A stretch of DNA of 61,558 bases, the filler included, from Globobulimina sp. (Eukaryota), in assembly GCA_003354225.1 (NCBI GenBank). It is 24 parts of 24 records of this genome, joined end to end, with 100 filler letters (N's around TTAATTAATTAA, not from the genome) between each part and the next. Parts side by side here need not be neighbours in the genome. Positions count along the whole stretch, not along the records: positions 25,699 to 28,167 come from PIVH01006508.1; 23 more parts are not named here. The stretch is one strand, 5' to 3'. Both the position numbers and the translations under genes were made by a program. This document shows positions 1 through 59,090 of the stretch, piece by piece. Positions within the stretch are counted from its first letter, which is position 1. Each line of letters begins with the position of its first letter. The notes under the pieces were generated by a model. That model saw only the letters and a list, made by a program, of their open reading frames with translations. It ran no database searches and was not told where the DNA came from.

Positions 1-2
1 GT

Positions 3-1925
3 TTGTCTATTATTCAATCACAAAGTTTGAGACAAAGTTTTTCTATTATTCAATCACGAAGTTTGAGACAAAGTTTTCCTATTATTCAATCACAAAGTTT
101 GAGACAAAGTTTTTCTATTCAGCTTACAAAAGCAGAAGAACGAGGAGTTGGCTCAATAGGAAGGAATTTATATATGAAATATATTAAAGCTATGGGTGGA
201 ATACCTTTAGTTTTATTATTTATAATTCTGAAATCGCTGGAGCATTCAAGTTTCATAGGTTTGATTTTTTTTTTGGCAAAATGGTCCGCAAGTACTTCAA
301 ATAACAATGAATATTATTTTGGTATCTTGTGCATCTTCGGGTCAGTAGTTGTACTTATGACTTGTTTATCATCTCTAGTCATCATCATTGGAGCATTTAA
401 AGCGTCTAAAAAGTTACACCAAGGATTATTATATTCGTTGTTGCATGCAAAGCAAGAATTTTTTGATGAGACACCATTAGGGAGAATAATAAATAGATTT
501 TCAAAAGATATGAATAATATCGATGAGCAATTACCAATTTATATAAGAGAATCTTTGCTATTGTTTGGTCTTATAATTGTGTCACTATTACAATCAATCA
601 TTGTAACACCATTATTTACAATATTTGTAATTCCAATAATGATCTGGTATTACTATTTACAAAAATATTTTATTGCTTCAATGCGGGAATTACGCCGGTT
701 ATCGTCAATTATGAATTCGCCCATTTATTCACATTTTAGTGAATCTTTAGATGGAATTAGTATTATTCGAACATTAAATAAATCAAAACAATTTAATAAA
801 CAAAATAAGGAATTAATTAATCGTGATTTACATTGTTATTATCCGTTAATGTCTGCAAACAGATGGTTAGGTACTCGTTTATCGTTTATCTCGTCCTGTT
901 TAGTTGGTGCTGCTGCCCTTTCCTGTGCTATTACGTTACCACCGCCTGAGTTAGTGGGTGTTTCTCTGACTGCTGTTATGATGCTAAGTGAATGTTTAAA
1001 TTGGTTTGTTGAGATGAAAGCAAGTTTAGAGCAGAATATTGTTTCTGTGGAACGAATTGACCAGTATAAAAGCGAGAATATTAAACAAGAAAAACCGTTC
1101 ATTGTAGAGAACCAAATAATTGGATTGAATAAAGAATGGCCAGTCAATGGGAAAATATATTTTCATAATGTTTGGATGAAATACAGAGATAATTTAGATT
1201 TCGTAATAAAAGGATTAACATTTGAAATAAAAGGTGGTGAAAAGGTAGGTGTAATTGGTCGAAGCGGTGCAGGGAAATCTTCATTGTTTATCACATTGTT
1301 AAGAATGGTTGAAATAAGTCAAGGAAAAATCGAAATTGATAATGTCGATATTGGTAAAATTGGTCTACATGATTTAAGAAAAAAGATATCAGTGATACCA
1401 CAAGATCCAGTATTATTTAATGGAACAATTAAACTTAATTTAGATCCATTTAATCAAACAAGTGATGAAAAATTAATAGAGTCGTTGAAGTCTGTCAATA
1501 TGTGGCAACCATTAAAGAAAATATGTGCCAGCGAGGATAATGAGCAGAGTGACGAAAATATAAATATTAATATGGATCCGTTACAAGTTATGGTTGAAGA
1601 GAATGGACACAATTTTAGTTTGGGACAAAGGCAGTTATTATGTTTGGCGCGAGCAATTGTTCGAAATTCAAAAATATTATTATTAGATGAAGCGACAAGT
1701 TCAGTGGATACAAAAACAGATAAAGAAATGCAAGAAACAATACGTAAAATATTTAAGAATCATACAATCTTAGCCATTGCACATCGAATAAATACAATCA
1801 TGGATTATGATAAAATTTTAATTGTAGATAATGGTAACATTTTAGAATATGATTCTCCAAATAATTTGTTGAATAATCCACAAAGTAAATTTAAACAAAT
1901 TGTAAAGGAATCCTTTGTTGAATAG
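3..1925 (+). CDS. ABCC/MRP-family ABC transporter, C-terminal half (TMD2+NBD2), 5'-truncated
   Basis: FFDETPLGRIINRFSKD, SPIYSHFSESLDG, Walker A GRSGAGKSS, signature FSLGQRQLLCLARA, Walker B ILLLDEATSSVD, IAHR. Confidence 0.97.
   Translation: MSIIQSQSLRQSFSIIQSRSLRQSFPIIQSQSLRQSFSIQLTKAEERGVGSIGRNLYMKYIKAMGGIPLVLLFIILKSLEHSSFIGLIFFLAKWSASTSNNNEYYFGILCIFGSVVVLMTCLSSLVIIIGAFKASKKLHQGLLYSLLHAKQEFFDETPLGRIINRFSKDMNNIDEQLPIYIRESLLLFGLIIVSLLQSIIVTPLFTIFVIPIMIWYYYLQKYFIASMRELRRLSSIMNSPIYSHFSESLDGISIIRTLNKSKQFNKQNKELINRDLHCYYPLMSANRWLGTRLSFISSCLVGAAALSCAITLPPPELVGVSLTAVMMLSECLNWFVEMKASLEQNIVSVERIDQYKSENIKQEKPFIVENQIIGLNKEWPVNGKIYFHNVWMKYRDNLDFVIKGLTFEIKGGEKVGVIGRSGAGKSSLFITLLRMVEISQGKIEIDNVDIGKIGLHDLRKKISVIPQDPVLFNGTIKLNLDPFNQTSDEKLIESLKSVNMWQPLKKICASEDNEQSDENININMDPLQVMVEENGHNFSLGQRQLLCLARAIVRNSKILLLDEATSSVDTKTDKEMQETIRKIFKNHTILAIAHRINTIMDYDKILIVDNGNILEYDSPNNLLNNPQSKFKQIVKESFVE
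6..119 (+). repeat. 36-bp tandem repeat x3 (SIIQSQSLRQSF)
   Basis: Unit tctattattcaatcacaaagtttgagacaaagtttt, three near-identical copies plus a partial. Confidence 0.95.
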
Positions 1926-4963: not shown

Positions 4964-5591
4964 TATATTGATTTGGATGCGAAAACATTAAATATAACGT
5001 ACACATACGTACACACACAATCTATATAGCGCTTAAAATANNNNNNNNNNNNNNNNNNNNNNNNNNNNNNNNNNNNNNNNNNNNTTAATTAATTAANNNN
5101 NNNNNNNNNNNNNNNNNNNNNNNNNNNNNNNNNNNNNNNNAGTTGAAGGAACCGATGAAATCTCTGAAATTTGTAGGCGGTTCGTCCAAAGAGGATGTGT
5201 TTTTGCGCCAAATTGAGACTGATCAATTAATGTAATATGCAAATGTTTAAATAGTATTTCTACATTTTTATTTCTTATTATATGTTATAATATGTAATGT
5301 GTGTCGTCTTTTATCTTTTTTTTTCTCTTTTGCCAATTAAAAAATTAATGTAAATGCTTTCCGAATTGTTATAATTATATTATATCAAAACATTATGTGT
5401 CAGAAATTTATATTTGTATCAAAACATTATATTATATCGTTTCTACGGCCACAGTTTTTATCGTTTCTACGCAGAATATACATTGGGGTTTATGTCAATA
5501 CACGTACACTATAATAAAATTCAAAAGAGATCAATCAAAAAAGGCAAAAAGATATATATTATTCAATTCAACAGTGTCAAATAACTGTCGA

Positions 5592-23129: not shown

Positions 23130-23269
23130 CATCCGGTTTTCAGCGTCAGATTTTTATTGTTTCTGAGAAACGAAGGCAAACCTATATTGTTTTTACCTTT
23201 ATCAGTCACCAGAAACGGTTTGCTTATACCTTGCCCCAATAAAAATCTGACTCTGAAGACCGGATGCTC
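23130..23269. mobile_element. MITE-like element at the contig start
   Basis: 30-bp arms 23130-23159 and 23237-23266 with 2 mismatches; the right end reads GGATGCTC|TTA. Confidence 0.7.
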
Positions 23270-23371
23270 TTAAATAATTAATGGAGTCGTGCTCTTTTTT
23301 TTCTGTATTTTAATAGTATTTTCAAGTGAGTAGAAGTGGAACAACCGTTTTTGTAAATACATATTAAAGAG

Positions 23372-24925
23372 ATGACATTTTGCGAAGTCTTTGCCTTTTT
23401 GCCAGAAATATTTGCATCGATAGCGTATGTTTCGATATTGTTTGCGACACCGGTAATTATATCGTATTGTAAATGTAAATCTGTTCTAACCGAAATAACA
23501 TATATTTATCATGGAATTGCTTTGCTTACATTGTGTGTCTTATTATTTGTGTTTATCAGATGTTATATCAATATTTTGTTAAGAACATATCTTAAAAAAC
23601 TTATATTACTGTTACCTTTTGGAACATTGATACTATGTTTTCTAGTGATATTCAATGCAAATTGTATCAAGACAATTGATTTACAGGTTATTACATTTAT
23701 TAATGTAATGTATTGTGCTGTTGCTATCCATTATTTATTACTTGATCAAAAGAATAACATCATACCAACAAATTATTATTTATTTTCCAAATTCTTATCT
23801 ATTTTTGAATGTTTATCAATATTAAGGTAGTTCAATATGATCATATGCAAAAACAAAAAAATGATGGTGCAGTTTCTGACGGAGTAGCAAGTAAATATTC
23901 TGCCAGAAACGCCACCATCAAACCTTTTAAAATACTCTCACGAATCCCGCATGTAACAGATTGTAACTACCTTAAGCTGCATAATGAGTTTTGAAACAAA
24001 TGTTACACATTTAAATATTTATCATTATTTTCCCTTGGCATGGTCAGTAACAATGATATGTGCCATTCCTTTCATGCTTAACTGGATTTATATTCATCTA
24101 TTTATTGATATTTATGTAAAATTACGATATGAGAATAAATTATTTTCATGGATTTTTCATGGAAACAATAGACAACATTCAAATTATTATCAACCAAAAC
24201 AAGTTATCATTAATAGAATATATTACATTATTCATTACGCCTCGCATTATAAATCTTTGTTGTATCAAAATCGGACAATACAATATCATTCAATGGATGC
24301 ATGTTTTTGTATTGATAAAAAAAGAGCAATTCCATTAATTAATAATACCAATAATATTGCAATGAATATGCATCAGTGTGGCCACCGCGGTGATACACAA
24401 TGTTTACAATATTTATTAAAATACATAAAATGCAAAAATTTAGTGGCAAAATCTCATTATATTTCAAAGATAACATCCAAACAATTTAAGTATCGGAGTA
24501 ATTGTAAACGTTTTTTCCAAAGACTTTTATTTTATATTTGTCTCATTCTAAAGTTTATTGCATGTTTATTATTTCCTTTCTTATGGCTTGGATTTCTATT
24601 TTTTAATTATAAACAATTACATACACAGACAATGATAAAATGTTTTATTATTTCTTCCGCGTATGGCTTGTGTGTATGTTGTTGTCTTTGTATTGGATTA
24701 AAAATTTTAGTGATTGAGTATTATTACAATTTTATTACAGATTTTGATAAAAGATATGACATCGATAAGGAAAATGTTATTATGAATCAATTAGATTCAA
24801 TGGAAAAGTCCATTCAATGTTTGAATAGGATTTATTTCCATTTGAAATGTGTATTTAATGACGAGATAAGTGACATAATCATAACTTTCATATTCTGTGG
24901 TTTTGCAAACAAATTCAAGCAATGA
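23372..24925 (+). CDS. Multi-pass membrane protein in three overlapping frames (intron or frameshifts; possible pseudogene)
   Basis: Hydrophobic ORFs 23372-23830, 23809-23994 and 23984-24925 abut with frame changes. Confidence 0.5.
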
Positions 24926-25062
24926 TTTGGCAACGACTCGCTCGCATCAGTTGAAGACACGTTTTTGAAAAGAGACACATGGAAAACACATCAACAATGT
25001 AAATAAAACGCATTCAATAATTAATGAATTCTAGCAACACATTTACAGCAACACTTGATTGA

Positions 25063-25497
25063 TTATGTCATACTATTTCTTATACTATTTTCACTACATT
25101 TTATACAACATTTATAGCAACCAAAATGGCAACAGGCGCATATTTGATAATATATACTTTTGCTAAATTTCATAGATAAATACAAACAAGTGATGATACC
25201 ACACATTCCACACAACCTCGATCCATATACAACAATTCCTAGCAAATCATTTCCTTCCCATCTTTCACTCAACGAACAAACACCAATAACATAAAATATC
25301 TGATTAAACATAACAGCCACGATGCTTAATATCGTATGCCGAGTAATAATCACAATTAGGTTTAACTGATGATCATCAAACTCGATATTCTGCCGAGTAA
25401 TGGCAGTGATTTGAGATAACAATGAATGTGTTGGAGACAACTCATTTGTTGCAGTTGACTCATTATTGGAACTTACTGATGGATCCGGAGAGTGCAT
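25063..25497 (-). CDS. C-terminal two TM helices and Cys-rich tail of a 7TM-like protein
   Basis: IITRHTILSIVAVMF..., CGIITCLYLSMKF..YYQICACCHFGCYKCC. Confidence 0.6.
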   Translation of the reverse strand: MHSPDPSVSSNNESTATNELSPTHSLLSQITAITRQNIEFDDHQLNLIVIITRHTILSIVAVMFNQIFYVIGVCSLSERWEGNDLLGIVVYGSRLCGMCGIITCLYLSMKFSKSIYYQICACCHFGCYKCCIKCSENSIRNSMT

Positions 25498-25873
25498 GGA
25501 AACATTATTTGATGATATCGATATGGATCGTTTCTCGTTACGTCGATATTTATATCTAAATATATAACGAAGAGAAATTCATCATCTTCCGTGTTTTTNN
25601 NNNNNNNNNNNNNNNNNNNNNNNNNNNNNNNNNNNNNNNNNNTTAATTAATTAANNNNNNNNNNNNNNNNNNNNNNNNNNNNNNNNNNNNNNNNNNNNAT
25701 AATTAAATAATTTATTAATGTTACAGCATATGTGTCATATTGATATGAACCTTTTTGTTTTTTTGTATATACAAAATATTAAATCAAATTTTATCCAGAT
25801 GAACAACACCAAAACAAGTATTTATACAAAAGTGTTTCCGAACATGTACAGGTACGTATTTGTTTTGGTGTTG

Positions 25874-27499
25874 CTAATATGGGTCGATGTGCAGTGAAAT
25901 ATAAAACAAAATGAAACCTGAAAGTACATCTTTAACGGACATGTGTGATATCAATACTTTATATCTATTCCTTTGCCCTTTACACGACGCCAAATCCTTC
26001 AATGATGTTAATATTTTATTCGATGCTAATATCGATATTTCGTCATTTTCATTTTCAATGCCAACCAATGTTACTAATAAAGATAAAGCTAACTCTGATA
26101 TTCTAATATCTTTTGAGTCAATTTGTTCTACGATGGTTCGAATTGAATGATTATGTTTAACCAAAGCAGACAACGCATATTCATTCGCATCGATGATTGC
26201 TTTAAATACCCGCAATAGTTCAATATCAAAATTATTATTTGTATATCGTTTATTTTTTCTAGTCGACAACGTTTTTGTTGCTAAGCGGCATAAATGATTT
26301 AAACCCATATTCTCTATAAAATCTTTTAAAAACGCATCGCTCTCATCACGCAAAACCACACTGAATTGCTGCAAAATTGATATATTTATCTTTGAATACG
26401 ACGCAAATTTATTGCTCCAATTTTTGCCCGATTCTTTTTTTTTCTCTATCTGTTTTAAAGCGTGCTGTTGTAACATTTGTATTTTGTGATTTCTATCCAA
26501 CGATAACATTTTGCCCCTTGCACTTTGCGGTATTTTCAAGGTTTTTATCAATTCATTCATTTTTTCATCAATTTCAGTCGAAGCCATATGTTCATAGTAT
26601 TCATCAATATATTCATCATCATTCATACTTTTCTTATGCGGCCGATTATGTTTACTCGACAATGATTGATATAAAATGTCGACTGCAGTATTTTTATGTG
26701 TTTGTGTCTGCATTTTTTGTGATTTTTTACGTTTTTGTTGTTCTAATCTATTTCTTAATGTTTTCGATTGTGTTCGACTACGCGTTGATACGTTTTTGGA
26801 CGCTTCGATTTGTTCAATTAAACATATCCGCCATTGCTCTAATTTCGCATTGCTATCTGTACAAAAAAAATGTTCTTCATACTGATTCATGTCAATATTG
26901 TCTTCTTTTGCTTCATTTAAAACGTTAATTTTGATGGGTTTTCGAATCATAAACGCAAACAATGTCGGTTCTTTACTTTGATATTTTTTATTGTCAAATT
27001 CTTGGTTCGCATTTCTTATTTTCACGCAATTTCGTTGTATTTTTAACATTTCTGAATGCCATTTTTTTTGTAATGAAGGAGAATCACAACGAAATTGATA
27101 CAATTCTCCCTTATCACTTTTCCATTGGATTGCATTATGTTTATCTGTACTTAAAATAAATTTGGATTTACTGATGTCAATGGATTTGATGTTACGTTTA
27201 TTTTCTGCATCGACATAATTTAAATAACCATATTTTACTAAAGCACACCAACGAGAATTCCAATATAATTTCCCTTTTTTATTCATCCATCCTTGAAATA
27301 AAATATTATCACTTCCGTTTAATAAATCTGTTGTGGTTAATAGTTCAATATAATATATTGGATCTTTATGTTGTTCGTGGTCATCTCGTTTAGTATATAT
27401 TCGTATTGCTGAGTCTGACACAATTACAAATCGTCGCATCCATGCTGCACGTGCTGAGGATGACGGTTTATGCCAAATATGGGCAGCGGCTATAGACAT
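25874..27499 (-). CDS. PH-domain protein with a diaphanous-type formin GTPase-binding (GBD/FH3-like) region; 3' part not recovered
   Basis: Two PH signatures (W.RR/W.SRW starts and C-terminal W helices); EIDEKMNELIKTLKIPQSARGKMLSLDRNHKIQML and LQQFSVVLRDESDAFLKDFIENMGL match the GBD pattern. Confidence 0.8.
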   Translation of the reverse strand: MSIAAAHIWHKPSSSARAAWMRRFVIVSDSAIRIYTKRDDHEQHKDPIYYIELLTTTDLLNGSDNILFQGWMNKKGKLYWNSRWCALVKYGYLNYVDAENKRNIKSIDISKSKFILSTDKHNAIQWKSDKGELYQFRCDSPSLQKKWHSEMLKIQRNCVKIRNANQEFDNKKYQSKEPTLFAFMIRKPIKINVLNEAKEDNIDMNQYEEHFFCTDSNAKLEQWRICLIEQIEASKNVSTRSRTQSKTLRNRLEQQKRKKSQKMQTQTHKNTAVDILYQSLSSKHNRPHKKSMNDDEYIDEYYEHMASTEIDEKMNELIKTLKIPQSARGKMLSLDRNHKIQMLQQHALKQIEKKKESGKNWSNKFASYSKINISILQQFSVVLRDESDAFLKDFIENMGLNHLCRLATKTLSTRKNKRYTNNNFDIELLRVFKAIIDANEYALSALVKHNHSIRTIVEQIDSKDIRISELALSLLVTLVGIENENDEISILASNKILTSLKDLASCKGQRNRYKVLISHMSVKDVLSGFILFYISLHIDPY

Positions 27500-27765
27500 G
27501 ATTTACAAAAGATGTTTTTTTTTACCGCTTAAATAAATCTTTTTGTGCACAAGACGATTATTCGGATGGTTGGTGGTTTGTGCAAAAACGTTGCTTTTAG
27601 AATCCTTTACTCTGACTCAAGTTTAATTTAATATTTGTTGTGTGATCAACACATTTCAAGCACAAGTATACATTGAAAAAATGTTCCAGTACACAACAAA
27701 CATACATAAATATATGTTTTTATTCTATCGTTAAATATCGAACATTGTATTTATTTTGCAGATGT

Positions 27766-28167
27766 TTAGTGAATAATATTTATGATTGCTGATGGCGCTA
27801 TACATGGCAAAATGGAGCCATCTGTATCCGAAGCATCACCACTCGACGAAAAATAATAATTTTGACCTTCTTCATCATCACTATTCACTGTTGAACACTG
27901 CATACAATAATCTGTATCACTGTTTTTATTTTCATCTGGCTGACATTCCAATTGCTTATAATCACTCTCATCATTTTTGTTTGTTGCTAAAACATGAATA
28001 TTATTACTGACTATATTTGCGGCTTTAATTACAGAAGTCCGATTTGATAATTTTTTCTTTGTTGATGCTGCAGCTGAAGGAGCTATGCAATATGATGTTG
28101 ACTGATTTGTGGATGATTCATCGTTTGCTTCGCTATCAGTGGATGAAAAATAATAATTTGTCCCTTC
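27766..28167 (-). CDS. C-terminus of an acidic protein with a duplicated EGxNYYFSS...CIAPSA motif
   Basis: Frame is open from the contig end for 133 aa; the motif occurs twice. Confidence 0.6.
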   Translation of the reverse strand, partial: EGTNYYFSSTDSEANDESSTNQSTSYCIAPSAAASTKKKLSNRTSVIKAANIVSNNIHVLATNKNDESDYKQLECQPDENKNSDTDYCMQCSTVNSDDEEGQNYYFSSSGDASDTDGSILPCIAPSAIINIIH

Positions 28168-28346: not shown

Positions 28347-30278
28347 TTAATCATTTTCTTTTAATGTTTTTGCATTTTCTTTTTTCCAACCATCAATTAA
28401 ATATTTTAATGCTCGATTTGTTATTAACATTTTATCCTCGCATTTCTCGCGGGTAATAGGCGATGTATTCTTATTAAGAAGCCATTCCTCAATACTCGCT
28501 CTGTTATACGTATGTCCATCGTAAGCAATTACCGGATCATGCATTATCTCAAAAGATATTGGACAGCAAAATTCCGGAGGAACCACCTTTCCATATAATA
28601 CACAATTACTTATTTTCTCTAATTTATTTTTCAATTTCATATGTTCTGCTTCCAATGATTTATATTCTTTATGCATTTTGGTGATTTTCCGTTGATGCGA
28701 ACTATGCACACTCTTTAAACTACAATTATTGTCCTGCAATTCCTGATTTTCACTCTGTACTTCTTCCAATTCACTCTCTAATGTTTTGTGTTTCTTTTTC
28801 ATTCGATTTAATGCTGCTTTTTGTTTCATATTTAACTCGCGAGTGTTATCATATTTCCTTTGTAATTTATTACATTTATTTTCCAAATCATCACGTTCTC
28901 GCTTGGCTGCATTACATTCATTTTCTAATTCATTCAACTCATTTTGCAATGTCTCCTTCCCTGACAATACATCATTTATTTCATCTTCTAACAACGCAAT
29001 ACTTTGCGCTGTCAATGTTATTGATTTAACCTCGCAATTTTTAACATATCCAGGTGGACACTCTGCGGATGAATCATTGCTGTCATACAAGCTTAACAAA
29101 CCAGGCAATGTCACTCTTTTCTCCTCCTCGTAATCATCCATATCATATGCATGTGCATCGGAAACAAGAATCATTGTATTATCATTGCCTAAATACACTG
29201 CTTTAATATATCCATTCGTTTTATCTTCAATCCGCTTATTAATACACGTTGGTTCTTTAATACATGCACTTGAACGTAAACAACAACATTCATTATATTT
29301 ATTGCTACCAAACAATAAATGTTTATTGTCCTCACTCAGCACATAACTATGCCGATAGCCACATTTGATGTCAATGATTAAATATCCACTCTCCTTCAAT
29401 GCTTGTATTACTTGTGGCTGTTTAATATGATATCCCTTATTATCAATACCGCACTGATACACATTATTCCTTCCCCACGACCAGACATTACCGGCATCAT
29501 CGAGTGATAAGTTGTAGTTCCAGCCGCAGGCCATCTGCTTTATTTTAATGCCATTATGCTTAAAATAGGAAATTGTATTCAGTTTTTGATTGACATCCAT
29601 AGATCCTAACTGACCATATATATTATCGCCGGATGCATATAAATTTCCGTTCGATCGAAGATATAATGAATGTCTCCCACCGCAGCTTATATCTACGATT
29701 TGTTTATGATTGAATGTCGATTTTAATCTCCATTTCAAATTACGTTTACATCCATTGGTTGTGTATACATTTCCATTATAATCCATGGCTATGCTACAAC
29801 CAAAACTACAACAGATTTTCTTAACATTCTCTAAGGACTGAATTAATGTGGGCGCAAATTTGTGTTTTCCGTCGGCAATCCCCAGTTCATACTGATCGTT
29901 TTTGCCATTTCCATATACTTTGTTATCGGATGTGACCCAAAAGGTAGACATGCCGGTCACAGTGGTATGTACAGACTTTATTTCTATGTTATTGTCATTG
30001 AAGTAGGTGATATGTTGGGGTTGTTTCACAAATTGGGTTTGTTGATTGATGCCACATTCACCAAAACCGTTTTTACCCATACCCCAGTAATGTCCGTTGG
30101 TGTCATGGATAATTAATCCGCTTTCAGATAAATGGATTTGATTTATATGGATATGCTTATTTGGCTTTGTCCATTCGGTTAATGATGTAATATTTTCGTC
30201 GTGGTTTAATCCCAAACGAAAACCATTGTTGTATCCGATGACTAATGCAATGCCATTTGCATTGGAATTCATTTTCAT
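28347..30278 (-). CDS. RCC1-repeat + coiled-coil + U-box E3 ubiquitin ligase
   Basis: G.N.YGQLG and ISCGGRHSL repeats; PPEFCCPISFEIMHDPV..DGHTYNRASIEEWL..TSPITRE. Confidence 0.93.
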   Translation of the reverse strand: MKMNSNANGIALVIGYNNGFRLGLNHDENITSLTEWTKPNKHIHINQIHLSESGLIIHDTNGHYWGMGKNGFGECGINQQTQFVKQPQHITYFNDNNIEIKSVHTTVTGMSTFWVTSDNKVYGNGKNDQYELGIADGKHKFAPTLIQSLENVKKICCSFGCSIAMDYNGNVYTTNGCKRNLKWRLKSTFNHKQIVDISCGGRHSLYLRSNGNLYASGDNIYGQLGSMDVNQKLNTISYFKHNGIKIKQMACGWNYNLSLDDAGNVWSWGRNNVYQCGIDNKGYHIKQPQVIQALKESGYLIIDIKCGYRHSYVLSEDNKHLLFGSNKYNECCCLRSSACIKEPTCINKRIEDKTNGYIKAVYLGNDNTMILVSDAHAYDMDDYEEEKRVTLPGLLSLYDSNDSSAECPPGYVKNCEVKSITLTAQSIALLEDEINDVLSGKETLQNELNELENECNAAKRERDDLENKCNKLQRKYDNTRELNMKQKAALNRMKKKHKTLESELEEVQSENQELQDNNCSLKSVHSSHQRKITKMHKEYKSLEAEHMKLKNKLEKISNCVLYGKVVPPEFCCPISFEIMHDPVIAYDGHTYNRASIEEWLLNKNTSPITREKCEDKMLITNRALKYLIDGWKKENAKTLKEND

Positions 30279-58716: not shown

Positions 58717-59090
58717 CCTAATTACAGCTGTATAGCGAATGCCTAGTTTTTTTACTACTTATCCTCGCACAGTGACATTTTTATCGATAACAAAACAATT
58801 TGTGACTCCTTTTTATCCTCACCACATTAACATGTTCTTACAACAACAAAAAAAAAGACTGGACAGAAATAACAACAACAAAGAAAAAATAATAGTATAT
58901 TATTCATATGCAACTTTTTCGTTGTCGAGGCAGAGTAACGTTTCCGAAAACACAGTTTTTGGCCGAGGGGGCTCCGGGGGGTGGTGGGTGNNNNNNNNNN
59001 NNNNNNNNNNNNNNNNNNNNNNNNNNNNNNNNNNTTAATTAATTAANNNNNNNNNNNNNNNNNNNNNNNNNNNNNNNNNNNNNNNNNNNN

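Follow-up and report, generated by a model that had tools for sequence, protein, structure and literature searches.

Herein, we analysed a 61,558-base stretch of DNA from Globobulimina sp. (the window) and found, on the minus strand of its piece 25699..28167, the beginning of a gene whose predicted product places one PH domain inside another, ahead of a Diaphanous-type GTPase-binding domain (Drf_GBD). We consider that this piece probably holds the 5' exon of a transcribed and spliced Diaphanous-related formin gene of an AT-rich, gene-dense eukaryote, in which the PH-in-PH head would put the formin under lipid and Rho control. Because it is based on prediction, the finding carries moderate weight at present.

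The preliminary description of this DNA had proposed that residues ~3-53 and ~158-233 of the encoded protein are the two halves of one PH domain, separated by a complete PH domain at residues ~66-155. In the Pfam scan, a single PH domain was detected, corresponding to the inner domain; it covers residues 68-151 with an E-value of 3.6e-6, and its 27.9 bits lie just above the cut-off of 25.1. An AlphaFold2 model of residues 1-240, built on 23 aligned sequences, had a predicted local distance difference test score (pLDDT) of 88.7 and a predicted template modelling score of 0.79. The mean pLDDT was at least 71.8 in all five models, the N-part blocks of the best model scored 82-97, and low confidence was confined to a variable loop at ~189-206. 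In the model, five strands (residues 4-11, 21-28, 31-35, 49-52, and 58-61) precede the insert, which forms a domain of seven strands and a long helix (residues 66-169), and two strands (181-188 and 207-214) and a helix (217-233) come after it.

Structural comparison of the model with VIA-align was evaluated for the 50 matches listed. Whole single PH domains lay across the model from residues 1-3 to 232-240 in 15 of the 50, yet the aligned residues numbered only 92-120; the best of these was the PH domain of CERT (5jjd_A; Z 15.5), all 97 of whose 97 residues were superposed over 2..235 with a root-mean-square deviation (rmsd) of 2.0. A further 34 matches fell on the inner range, from residues 62-67 to 156-180 (for example, the Akt PH domain 1unr, Z 13.9), and one, PLC-gamma, spanned 60..216. 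Since a whole PH domain superposes at about 2 Å while skipping about 137 residues, the outer PH domain of the model is split by the inner one, and this predicted structure thus contains two complete PH folds, one nested within the other. By strand count, the predicted split lies after the fifth strand, in the beta5/beta6 loop; the placement rests on this count because the model was viewed as a DSSP string and aligned ranges rather than as coordinates. The preliminary description had staked its proposal on the outer halves folding into one PH domain, and in the confident model they do. Its three segments were right within about ten residues, with two corrections: the helix of the inner domain extends to residue 169, and the C-half of the outer domain starts at residue 181.

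A Foldseek search with the head gave as its best Protein Data Bank (PDB) match the PH1N-PH2-PH1C tandem of myosin X (3tfm; E 3.4e-7 over 256 columns), which was the sole top match to span both PH domains.

Conservation extends across the whole 235-residue unit and not the central domain alone. Family members have the N-part pattern W.Kp...W...Fv..sDs.i.IY and the first junction GSDNI, the inner-domain pattern KKGK..WN.RWC with Trp147 (invariant in alignment A1), and then the second junction EPTLFAF and the C-part H.FCad....Le.WkkCi.eQI, which includes Trp223. The canonical PH pocket motif is K-Xn-(K/R)-X-R. Basic residues of beta1/beta2 stand at the usual places in the inner pocket (Lys74, Lys75, Lys77, and Arg83) as well as in the outer one (Lys11, Arg22, and Arg23). 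When residues 1-240 were searched with HMMER against 1.84 billion representative proteins, only 25 matches were obtained at E ≤ 0.001, of which 20 reached 1e-10 or lower and 8 reached 1e-30 or lower, the weakest few being generic multi-PH proteins. Judged by these sequence matches, the family of the head module is small.

Behind the head and a linker, in which residues 261-296 (model residues 26-61) have a pLDDT below 50 and are disordered, Pfam recognised Drf_GBD over residues 305-479 with an E-value of 3.4e-14 and 53.2 bits, well above its cut-off of 30.1, and with profile positions 4-187 of 188 covered. Of the putative FH3/DID region that comes next, only the first part lies in the window, and FH3_FHOD1-3 gave a weak match below the cut-off (residues 443-496, E 0.018); in the aligned region of the full-length relative P0001, Drf_FH3 was found at residues 492-672 (E 4.4e-11). 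Residues 236-527 were modelled from 6 sequences, and the model is all-helical. All 12 of the Foldseek matches listed up to rank 13 for this model were formin N-terminal regulatory domains, among them the GBD-FH3 structures of FMNL1-Cdc42 (4ydh), FHOD1, mDia1-RhoC (1z2c), mDia1 DID-DAD, and EhFormin1-EhRho1 (4dvg); three of the listed matches are complexes with Rho-family GTPases, and DID structures such as 2bap and 8fg1 were matched too. A diaphanous-type GBD following the head, as anticipated in the preliminary description, is thus borne out by both the profile and the structural matches.

The closest full-length relative, P0001 (1461 amino acids), is 55% identical over 98% of the 541-residue open reading frame (ORF) in the window. 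Besides PH, Drf_GBD, and Drf_FH3, Pfam detected FH2 in P0001 (E 4.6e-70) and no C-terminal PH domain. The relative P0002 (1496 amino acids) is shorter at the N-terminus and likewise carries FH2 (E 8.1e-74). The solved chains nearest to the P0001 FH2 domain were those of mDia1 (3o4x_E, 7e-33) and DAAM1 (2j1d_G, 1.1e-31). From these relatives we infer that the window gene probably encodes an FH2 domain as well. Between FH3 and FH2, both P0001 and P0002 contain two copies of the CCDC53/WASH-subunit motif PF10152 (E 3.4e-11 and 1.3e-10), located at residues 855-876 and 940-961 of P0001 and 798-819 and 891-912 of P0002, with the pattern KY.KM.K..[IM]PK.S..NRMRQD. In the FH2-region search, five proteins, counting the query, had an identity of at least 50%, and each of them combines PF10152 with FH2; a literature search found no paper pairing CCDC53 with an FH2 domain. 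The C-termini of P0001 and P0002 have a common tail, SDVV.QTL....F.QRL followed by basic residues, which we take to resemble DAD. The word-indexed searches for relatives retained 2 of 5483 candidates when longer proteins were examined, 3 of 7291 at near length, and 11 of 4199 for the FH2 region, and with so few relatives they are a weak survey of the architecture.

The PH-in-PH head was also observed on non-formin tails, in the relatives P0011, P0007, P0025, P0010, and P0017. In P0025, part of the head is followed by a Mo25-like domain (PF08569, E 3.6e-24).

To describe the gene structure, contigs of four public runs (X1, X3, X6, and X7) were aligned to the piece 25699..28167. In X1, X3, and X6, which come from three studies, a single contig per run joined 25918 to 25750, skipping 167 nucleotides bounded by GT..AG on the minus strand, and the contig depth was zero across 25782-25864, inside this intron, in all four runs. 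The spliced joints indicate that the gene is transcribed and spliced; the run type is unrecorded, and the transcript status is read from the joints. The minus-strand ORF at 25874..27499 (541 amino acids) of the preliminary description exists, but its last 13 residues (FILFYISLHIDPY) are intron read-through, and the tail past residue 528 was rejected as coding sequence on account of the contig joints. At the start of exon 2, where P0001 reads GSMNYDVYTLTLINYLIM, tblastn with P0002 matched 25751..25701 at 82% over 17 residues. The piece ends 17 codons into this exon, and record 16 of X6 runs 621 nucleotides past the piece end at 25699.

The 5' untranslated region (UTR) is about 20 nucleotides long. 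The contig ends of X3 and X6 bear loose ends of sequencing adapter. The ATG is preceded, one codon away, by an in-frame TAA (27503-27505), and the same Met-Ser start occurs in several relatives in the alignment. The X6 and X7 contigs, which belong to a close relative, were 90-99% alike to the window sequence. In the linker (at 26642 and 26709), they differed by an in-frame 6-nucleotide insertion, present in X6 only, and a 9-nucleotide deletion; the in-frame indels in X6 fit a coding constraint.

Several observations weigh against the reading as a lipid- and Rho-controlled formin. One X7 contig (depth 6.46) has a 1-nucleotide insertion after 26434, which, if not due to the assembly, would shift the reading frame of that relative. 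The model of residues 236-527 is middling (pLDDT 71.9), and only one of its 12 listed formin matches had E ≤ 0.001. No FH2 domain lies in the window, where tblastn with P0001 and P0002 matched no other piece; the domain would lie outside because the window consists of 24 unlinked pieces of 2.47 kb. The relatives have no polyproline FH1, with zero PP pairs in P0002, three isolated pairs in P0001, and a proline fraction of 5-6% in the 300 residues before FH2 of both, nor did Pfam find Drf_DAD in P0001 or P0002 at E ≤ 0.01. The likeness of the head to 3tfm is topological only (TM-scores 0.35/0.39, rmsd 13.2, 14% identity), and such a low TM-score and high rmsd indicate that the relative orientation of the domains differs.

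The nesting itself might be a modelling artefact, in which residues 1-61 and 181-233 form no PH domain and the central Pfam domain alone is real. This would agree with the detection of only the central domain by Pfam and with the basis of the model, a shallow alignment of 23 sequences, the model being viewed as a DSSP string and aligned ranges. The confidence of all five models and of the N-part blocks, the superposition of a complete solved PH domain over both outer parts, and the conserved co-occurrence of these parts in every spanning relative (including P0001, P0003, P0006, P0007, P0010, and P0011) make it hardly credible. Somewhat less remote, yet still very unlikely, is that the window gene is a non-formin paralogue. 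In P0011 (1172 amino acids), the head and GBD/FH3 recur, with 42% identity to P0001 across 250 residues, and are followed by a tail without FH2 that P0007 shares. The head alone is therefore no proof of a formin, and the window piece stops before any tail. What lowers the probability of such a paralogue is that the window protein has a higher identity to P0001 and P0002, which bear FH2 (55-59%), than to P0011 (42%), and that the exon 2 start, xxYDxYxxTLINYLI, is present in both FH2-bearing relatives and shortened in P0011.

Fold and formin identity could also both hold while the head, instead of sensing lipids, binds proteins or regulates within the molecule, docking for example on a partner protein or on GBD/FH3. 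Only a minority of PH domains bind phosphoinositides strongly, and many bind proteins rather than lipids. The full basic pattern is found in neither pocket, for position 81 of the inner domain is a conserved Asn and position 21 of the outer domain is Met; each pocket keeps the beta1 Lys and the beta2 Arg without the middle basic residue, which makes this alternative a serious one. The presence of the same head on unrelated tails (Mo25-like in P0025 and the P0007/P0011 tail) would fit a general adaptor role as well. Lys74, Lys75, Arg83, and Lys11 are nevertheless conserved at pocket positions, and many of the top structural matches are lipid-binding PH domains (CERT, Grp1, Akt, ARAP3, and ASAP1), although a shared fold is no proof of function. 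In the extracts by which the cited papers are represented, the only other PH-in-PH protein described is myosin X, which binds PI(3,4,5)P3 (Lu et al. 2011, PMC3216653). We therefore regard a purely protein-binding head as rather doubtful and retain the lipid- and Rho-controlled formin as the preferred reading.

For such a formin, the following mechanism may be proposed. Beyond the piece, the window gene would continue as in its closest relatives, with more of FH3, two CCDC53-like motifs, FH2, and a short conserved tail. The PH-in-PH head would stand where mDia-type formins have their lipid-binding basic region at the N-terminus, and its two pockets could bind an acidic or phosphoinositide-rich membrane by avidity or coincidence. 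A GTP-bound Rho-family GTPase on the GBD would release the autoinhibition by FH3/DID, and the FH2 dimer could then assemble actin filaments at the membrane bound by the head. Only tentatively, we further suggest that the head arose independently of myosin X, at another loop and in one poorly sampled lineage, and became a portable module before at least three kinds of tail (Drf formin, Mo25-like scaffold, and an uncharacterised one), while the formin branch lost the polyproline FH1 and placed two CCDC53-like motifs before FH2. If true, filament elongation would be independent of profilin, or fed differently, and would be controlled jointly by lipid and Rho.

Table 1. Features of the formin-head gene in the window piece 25699..28167, in the order of transcription; domain assignments are predictions
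Feature	Position	Strand	Basis
Short 5' UTR	27500..27521	-	Contig cover stops at 27521 (X1), 27518 (X6), and 27482 (X3)
Coding exon 1, 527 codons and the first base of Gly528	25918..27499	-	ORF; splice joint 25918/25750; P0001 match
Outer PH, N-part, residues 4-61: five strands, conserved Lys11 and Arg22/Arg23	27317..27490	-	Model; VIA-align ranges; conservation
Inner complete PH, residues 66-169: seven strands and long helix, Trp147	26993..27304	-	Pfam; model; VIA-align
Outer PH, C-part, residues 181-233: two strands, loop 189-206, helix with Trp223	26801..26959	-	Model; VIA-align; conservation
Low-complexity basic linker, residues 234-304	26588..26800	-	pLDDT below 50; X6 indels
Drf GBD and start of armadillo repeats, residues 305-479	26063..26587	-	Pfam Drf_GBD; Foldseek
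Start of FH3/DID armadillo region, residues 480-527	25919..26062	-	Weak Pfam match; P0001 alignment
Intron, 167 nucleotides, GT..AG	25751..25917	-	Joints in X1, X3, and X6; zero contig depth
Start of exon 2, GSYQYDTYAVTLINYLI, cut by the piece end at 25699	25699..25750	-	tblastn of P0002; P0001 equivalent; X6

The window contains 46 runs of exactly 44 N, paired around TTAATTAATTAA with a period of 2,570 bases, so that spacers of the form N44-TTAATTAATTAA-N44 lie at 2471-2570, 5041-5140, and so on to 58991-59090. This fixed period indicates 24 unlinked pieces of about 2469 nucleotides each, and genes on either side of a spacer are consequently not genomic neighbours. Continuation of the formin-head gene into the neighbouring piece 23130..25598 was rejected because a spacer lies between; the ORF 25063..25578 of that piece had no Pfam family at E ≤ 1e-4 and was unmatched by tblastn with the full-length formin relatives.

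On the same strand and upstream of the gene, at 27589-28167, lies another gene, whose ORF (27769..28167) has no Pfam family and runs off the piece end. Its contigs have a several-fold higher depth and end at ~27589, about 67 nucleotides from the 5' end of the formin transcript, and so short a distance indicates a very compact genome. The next piece carries, at 28347-30278 on the minus strand, an intron-free ORF of 643 amino acids in which RCC1 repeats are combined with a coiled coil and, at the C-terminus, a U-box (Pfam RCC1-like domain E 1.5e-53, U-box E 1.7e-23; generic RCC1 clusters only, below 0.9, in the Atlas). The GC content of the window is ~27-38% overall. A Pfam scan covering 53 of the 81 listed frames of at least 110 residues identified ordinary eukaryotic domains (among them ABC transporter, Mo-co oxidoreductase, RCC1 with U-box, C2H2 zinc fingers, YEATS, and peroxin-13), and many of the scanned frames had no Pfam family. 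Rfam and tRNA scans of the window found nothing, and Atlas searches gave only generic PH or RCC1 clusters with scores below 0.9.

A second, convergent PH-in-PH at a different loop would make this supramodule a recurrent way to build a two-pocket membrane sensor. Formins would gain a folded, putatively lipid-binding head at a position that in mDia-type formins is taken by no more than a basic stretch, and a family whose domain shuffling traces cytoskeletal evolution would gain a new architecture. The FH1-less relatives with CCDC53-like motifs raise the question of how actin is fed to FH2.

Among proteins with split PH domains, myosin X offers the nearest comparison. Its PH1 is split in the beta3/beta4 loop, and Lu et al. 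2011 (PMC3216653) describe it as unique because one of its PH domains is interrupted by a second. As in myosin X, a complete PH domain is inserted here in a loop of another and the junction segments are conserved; unlike in myosin X, the split follows beta5, the host is a formin and not a myosin tail, the domains are differently oriented, and there is no sequence similarity, phmmer of the window protein against PDB sequences having returned no match at E ≤ 0.01. Given this lack of sequence similarity, the nested arrangement is read as convergent with that of myosin X. The likeness to PH1N-PH2-PH1C put forward in the preliminary description thus stands for the nesting, as seen in the model and the best Foldseek match, and not for the split site or for homology. 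The PH domain of PIKE is split at the same beta5/beta6 loop as here, where its insert is a nuclear localisation sequence and not a domain (Lu et al. 2011, PMC3216653).

Like the Diaphanous-related formins mDia1, FMNL1/2, DAAM1, and Entamoeba Formin1, the protein has Drf_GBD, followed by the start of putative FH3 armadillo repeats. It differs from them in the PH-in-PH head before the GBD, and its relatives differ in having CCDC53-like motifs and neither a polyproline FH1 nor a Drf_DAD match. mDia2 binds acidic phospholipids via an N-terminal basic domain adjoining the GBD (PMC3020915). Dictyostelium ForC is a formin without FH1 (Grunt 2008, PMC2386819), as the relatives here are, and by that description has no PH head.

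The preliminary description did not recognise the architecture in described formins, and the literature agrees as far as its extracts go: PH-bearing formins are known, a nested PH before a Drf GBD is not described in the extracts of three formin surveys (PMC2386819, PMC5047451, and PMC5628938), and a search for formins with split PH domains showed none among the papers listed, judged by title and abstract. For the holozoan PHCF formins, the order PH-PH-FH1-FH2-PH is given, and G, DID, DD, or WH2-like sequence is not detectable in them (PMC5047451, PMC5628938). They share the N-terminal PH pair, whose tandem or nested state is not given in the extracted descriptions, and differ, by description, from the present protein with its Drf GBD and putative FH3 and from P0001, which has no C-terminal PH or FH1. 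PH-FH2 formins occur in stramenopiles and Monosiga (Grunt 2008, PMC2386819), and FHOD/FMN-related formins of apusozoans have a single N-terminal PH domain before the G2-DID region (Pruyne 2017, PMC5628938). In the formins of stramenopiles, Monosiga, and apusozoans, as here, the PH domain stands N-terminal to the GTPase-binding/DID region; there it is described as a single domain before a G2 fold of the FHOD type, whereas here a nested pair precedes a GBD of the Drf type.

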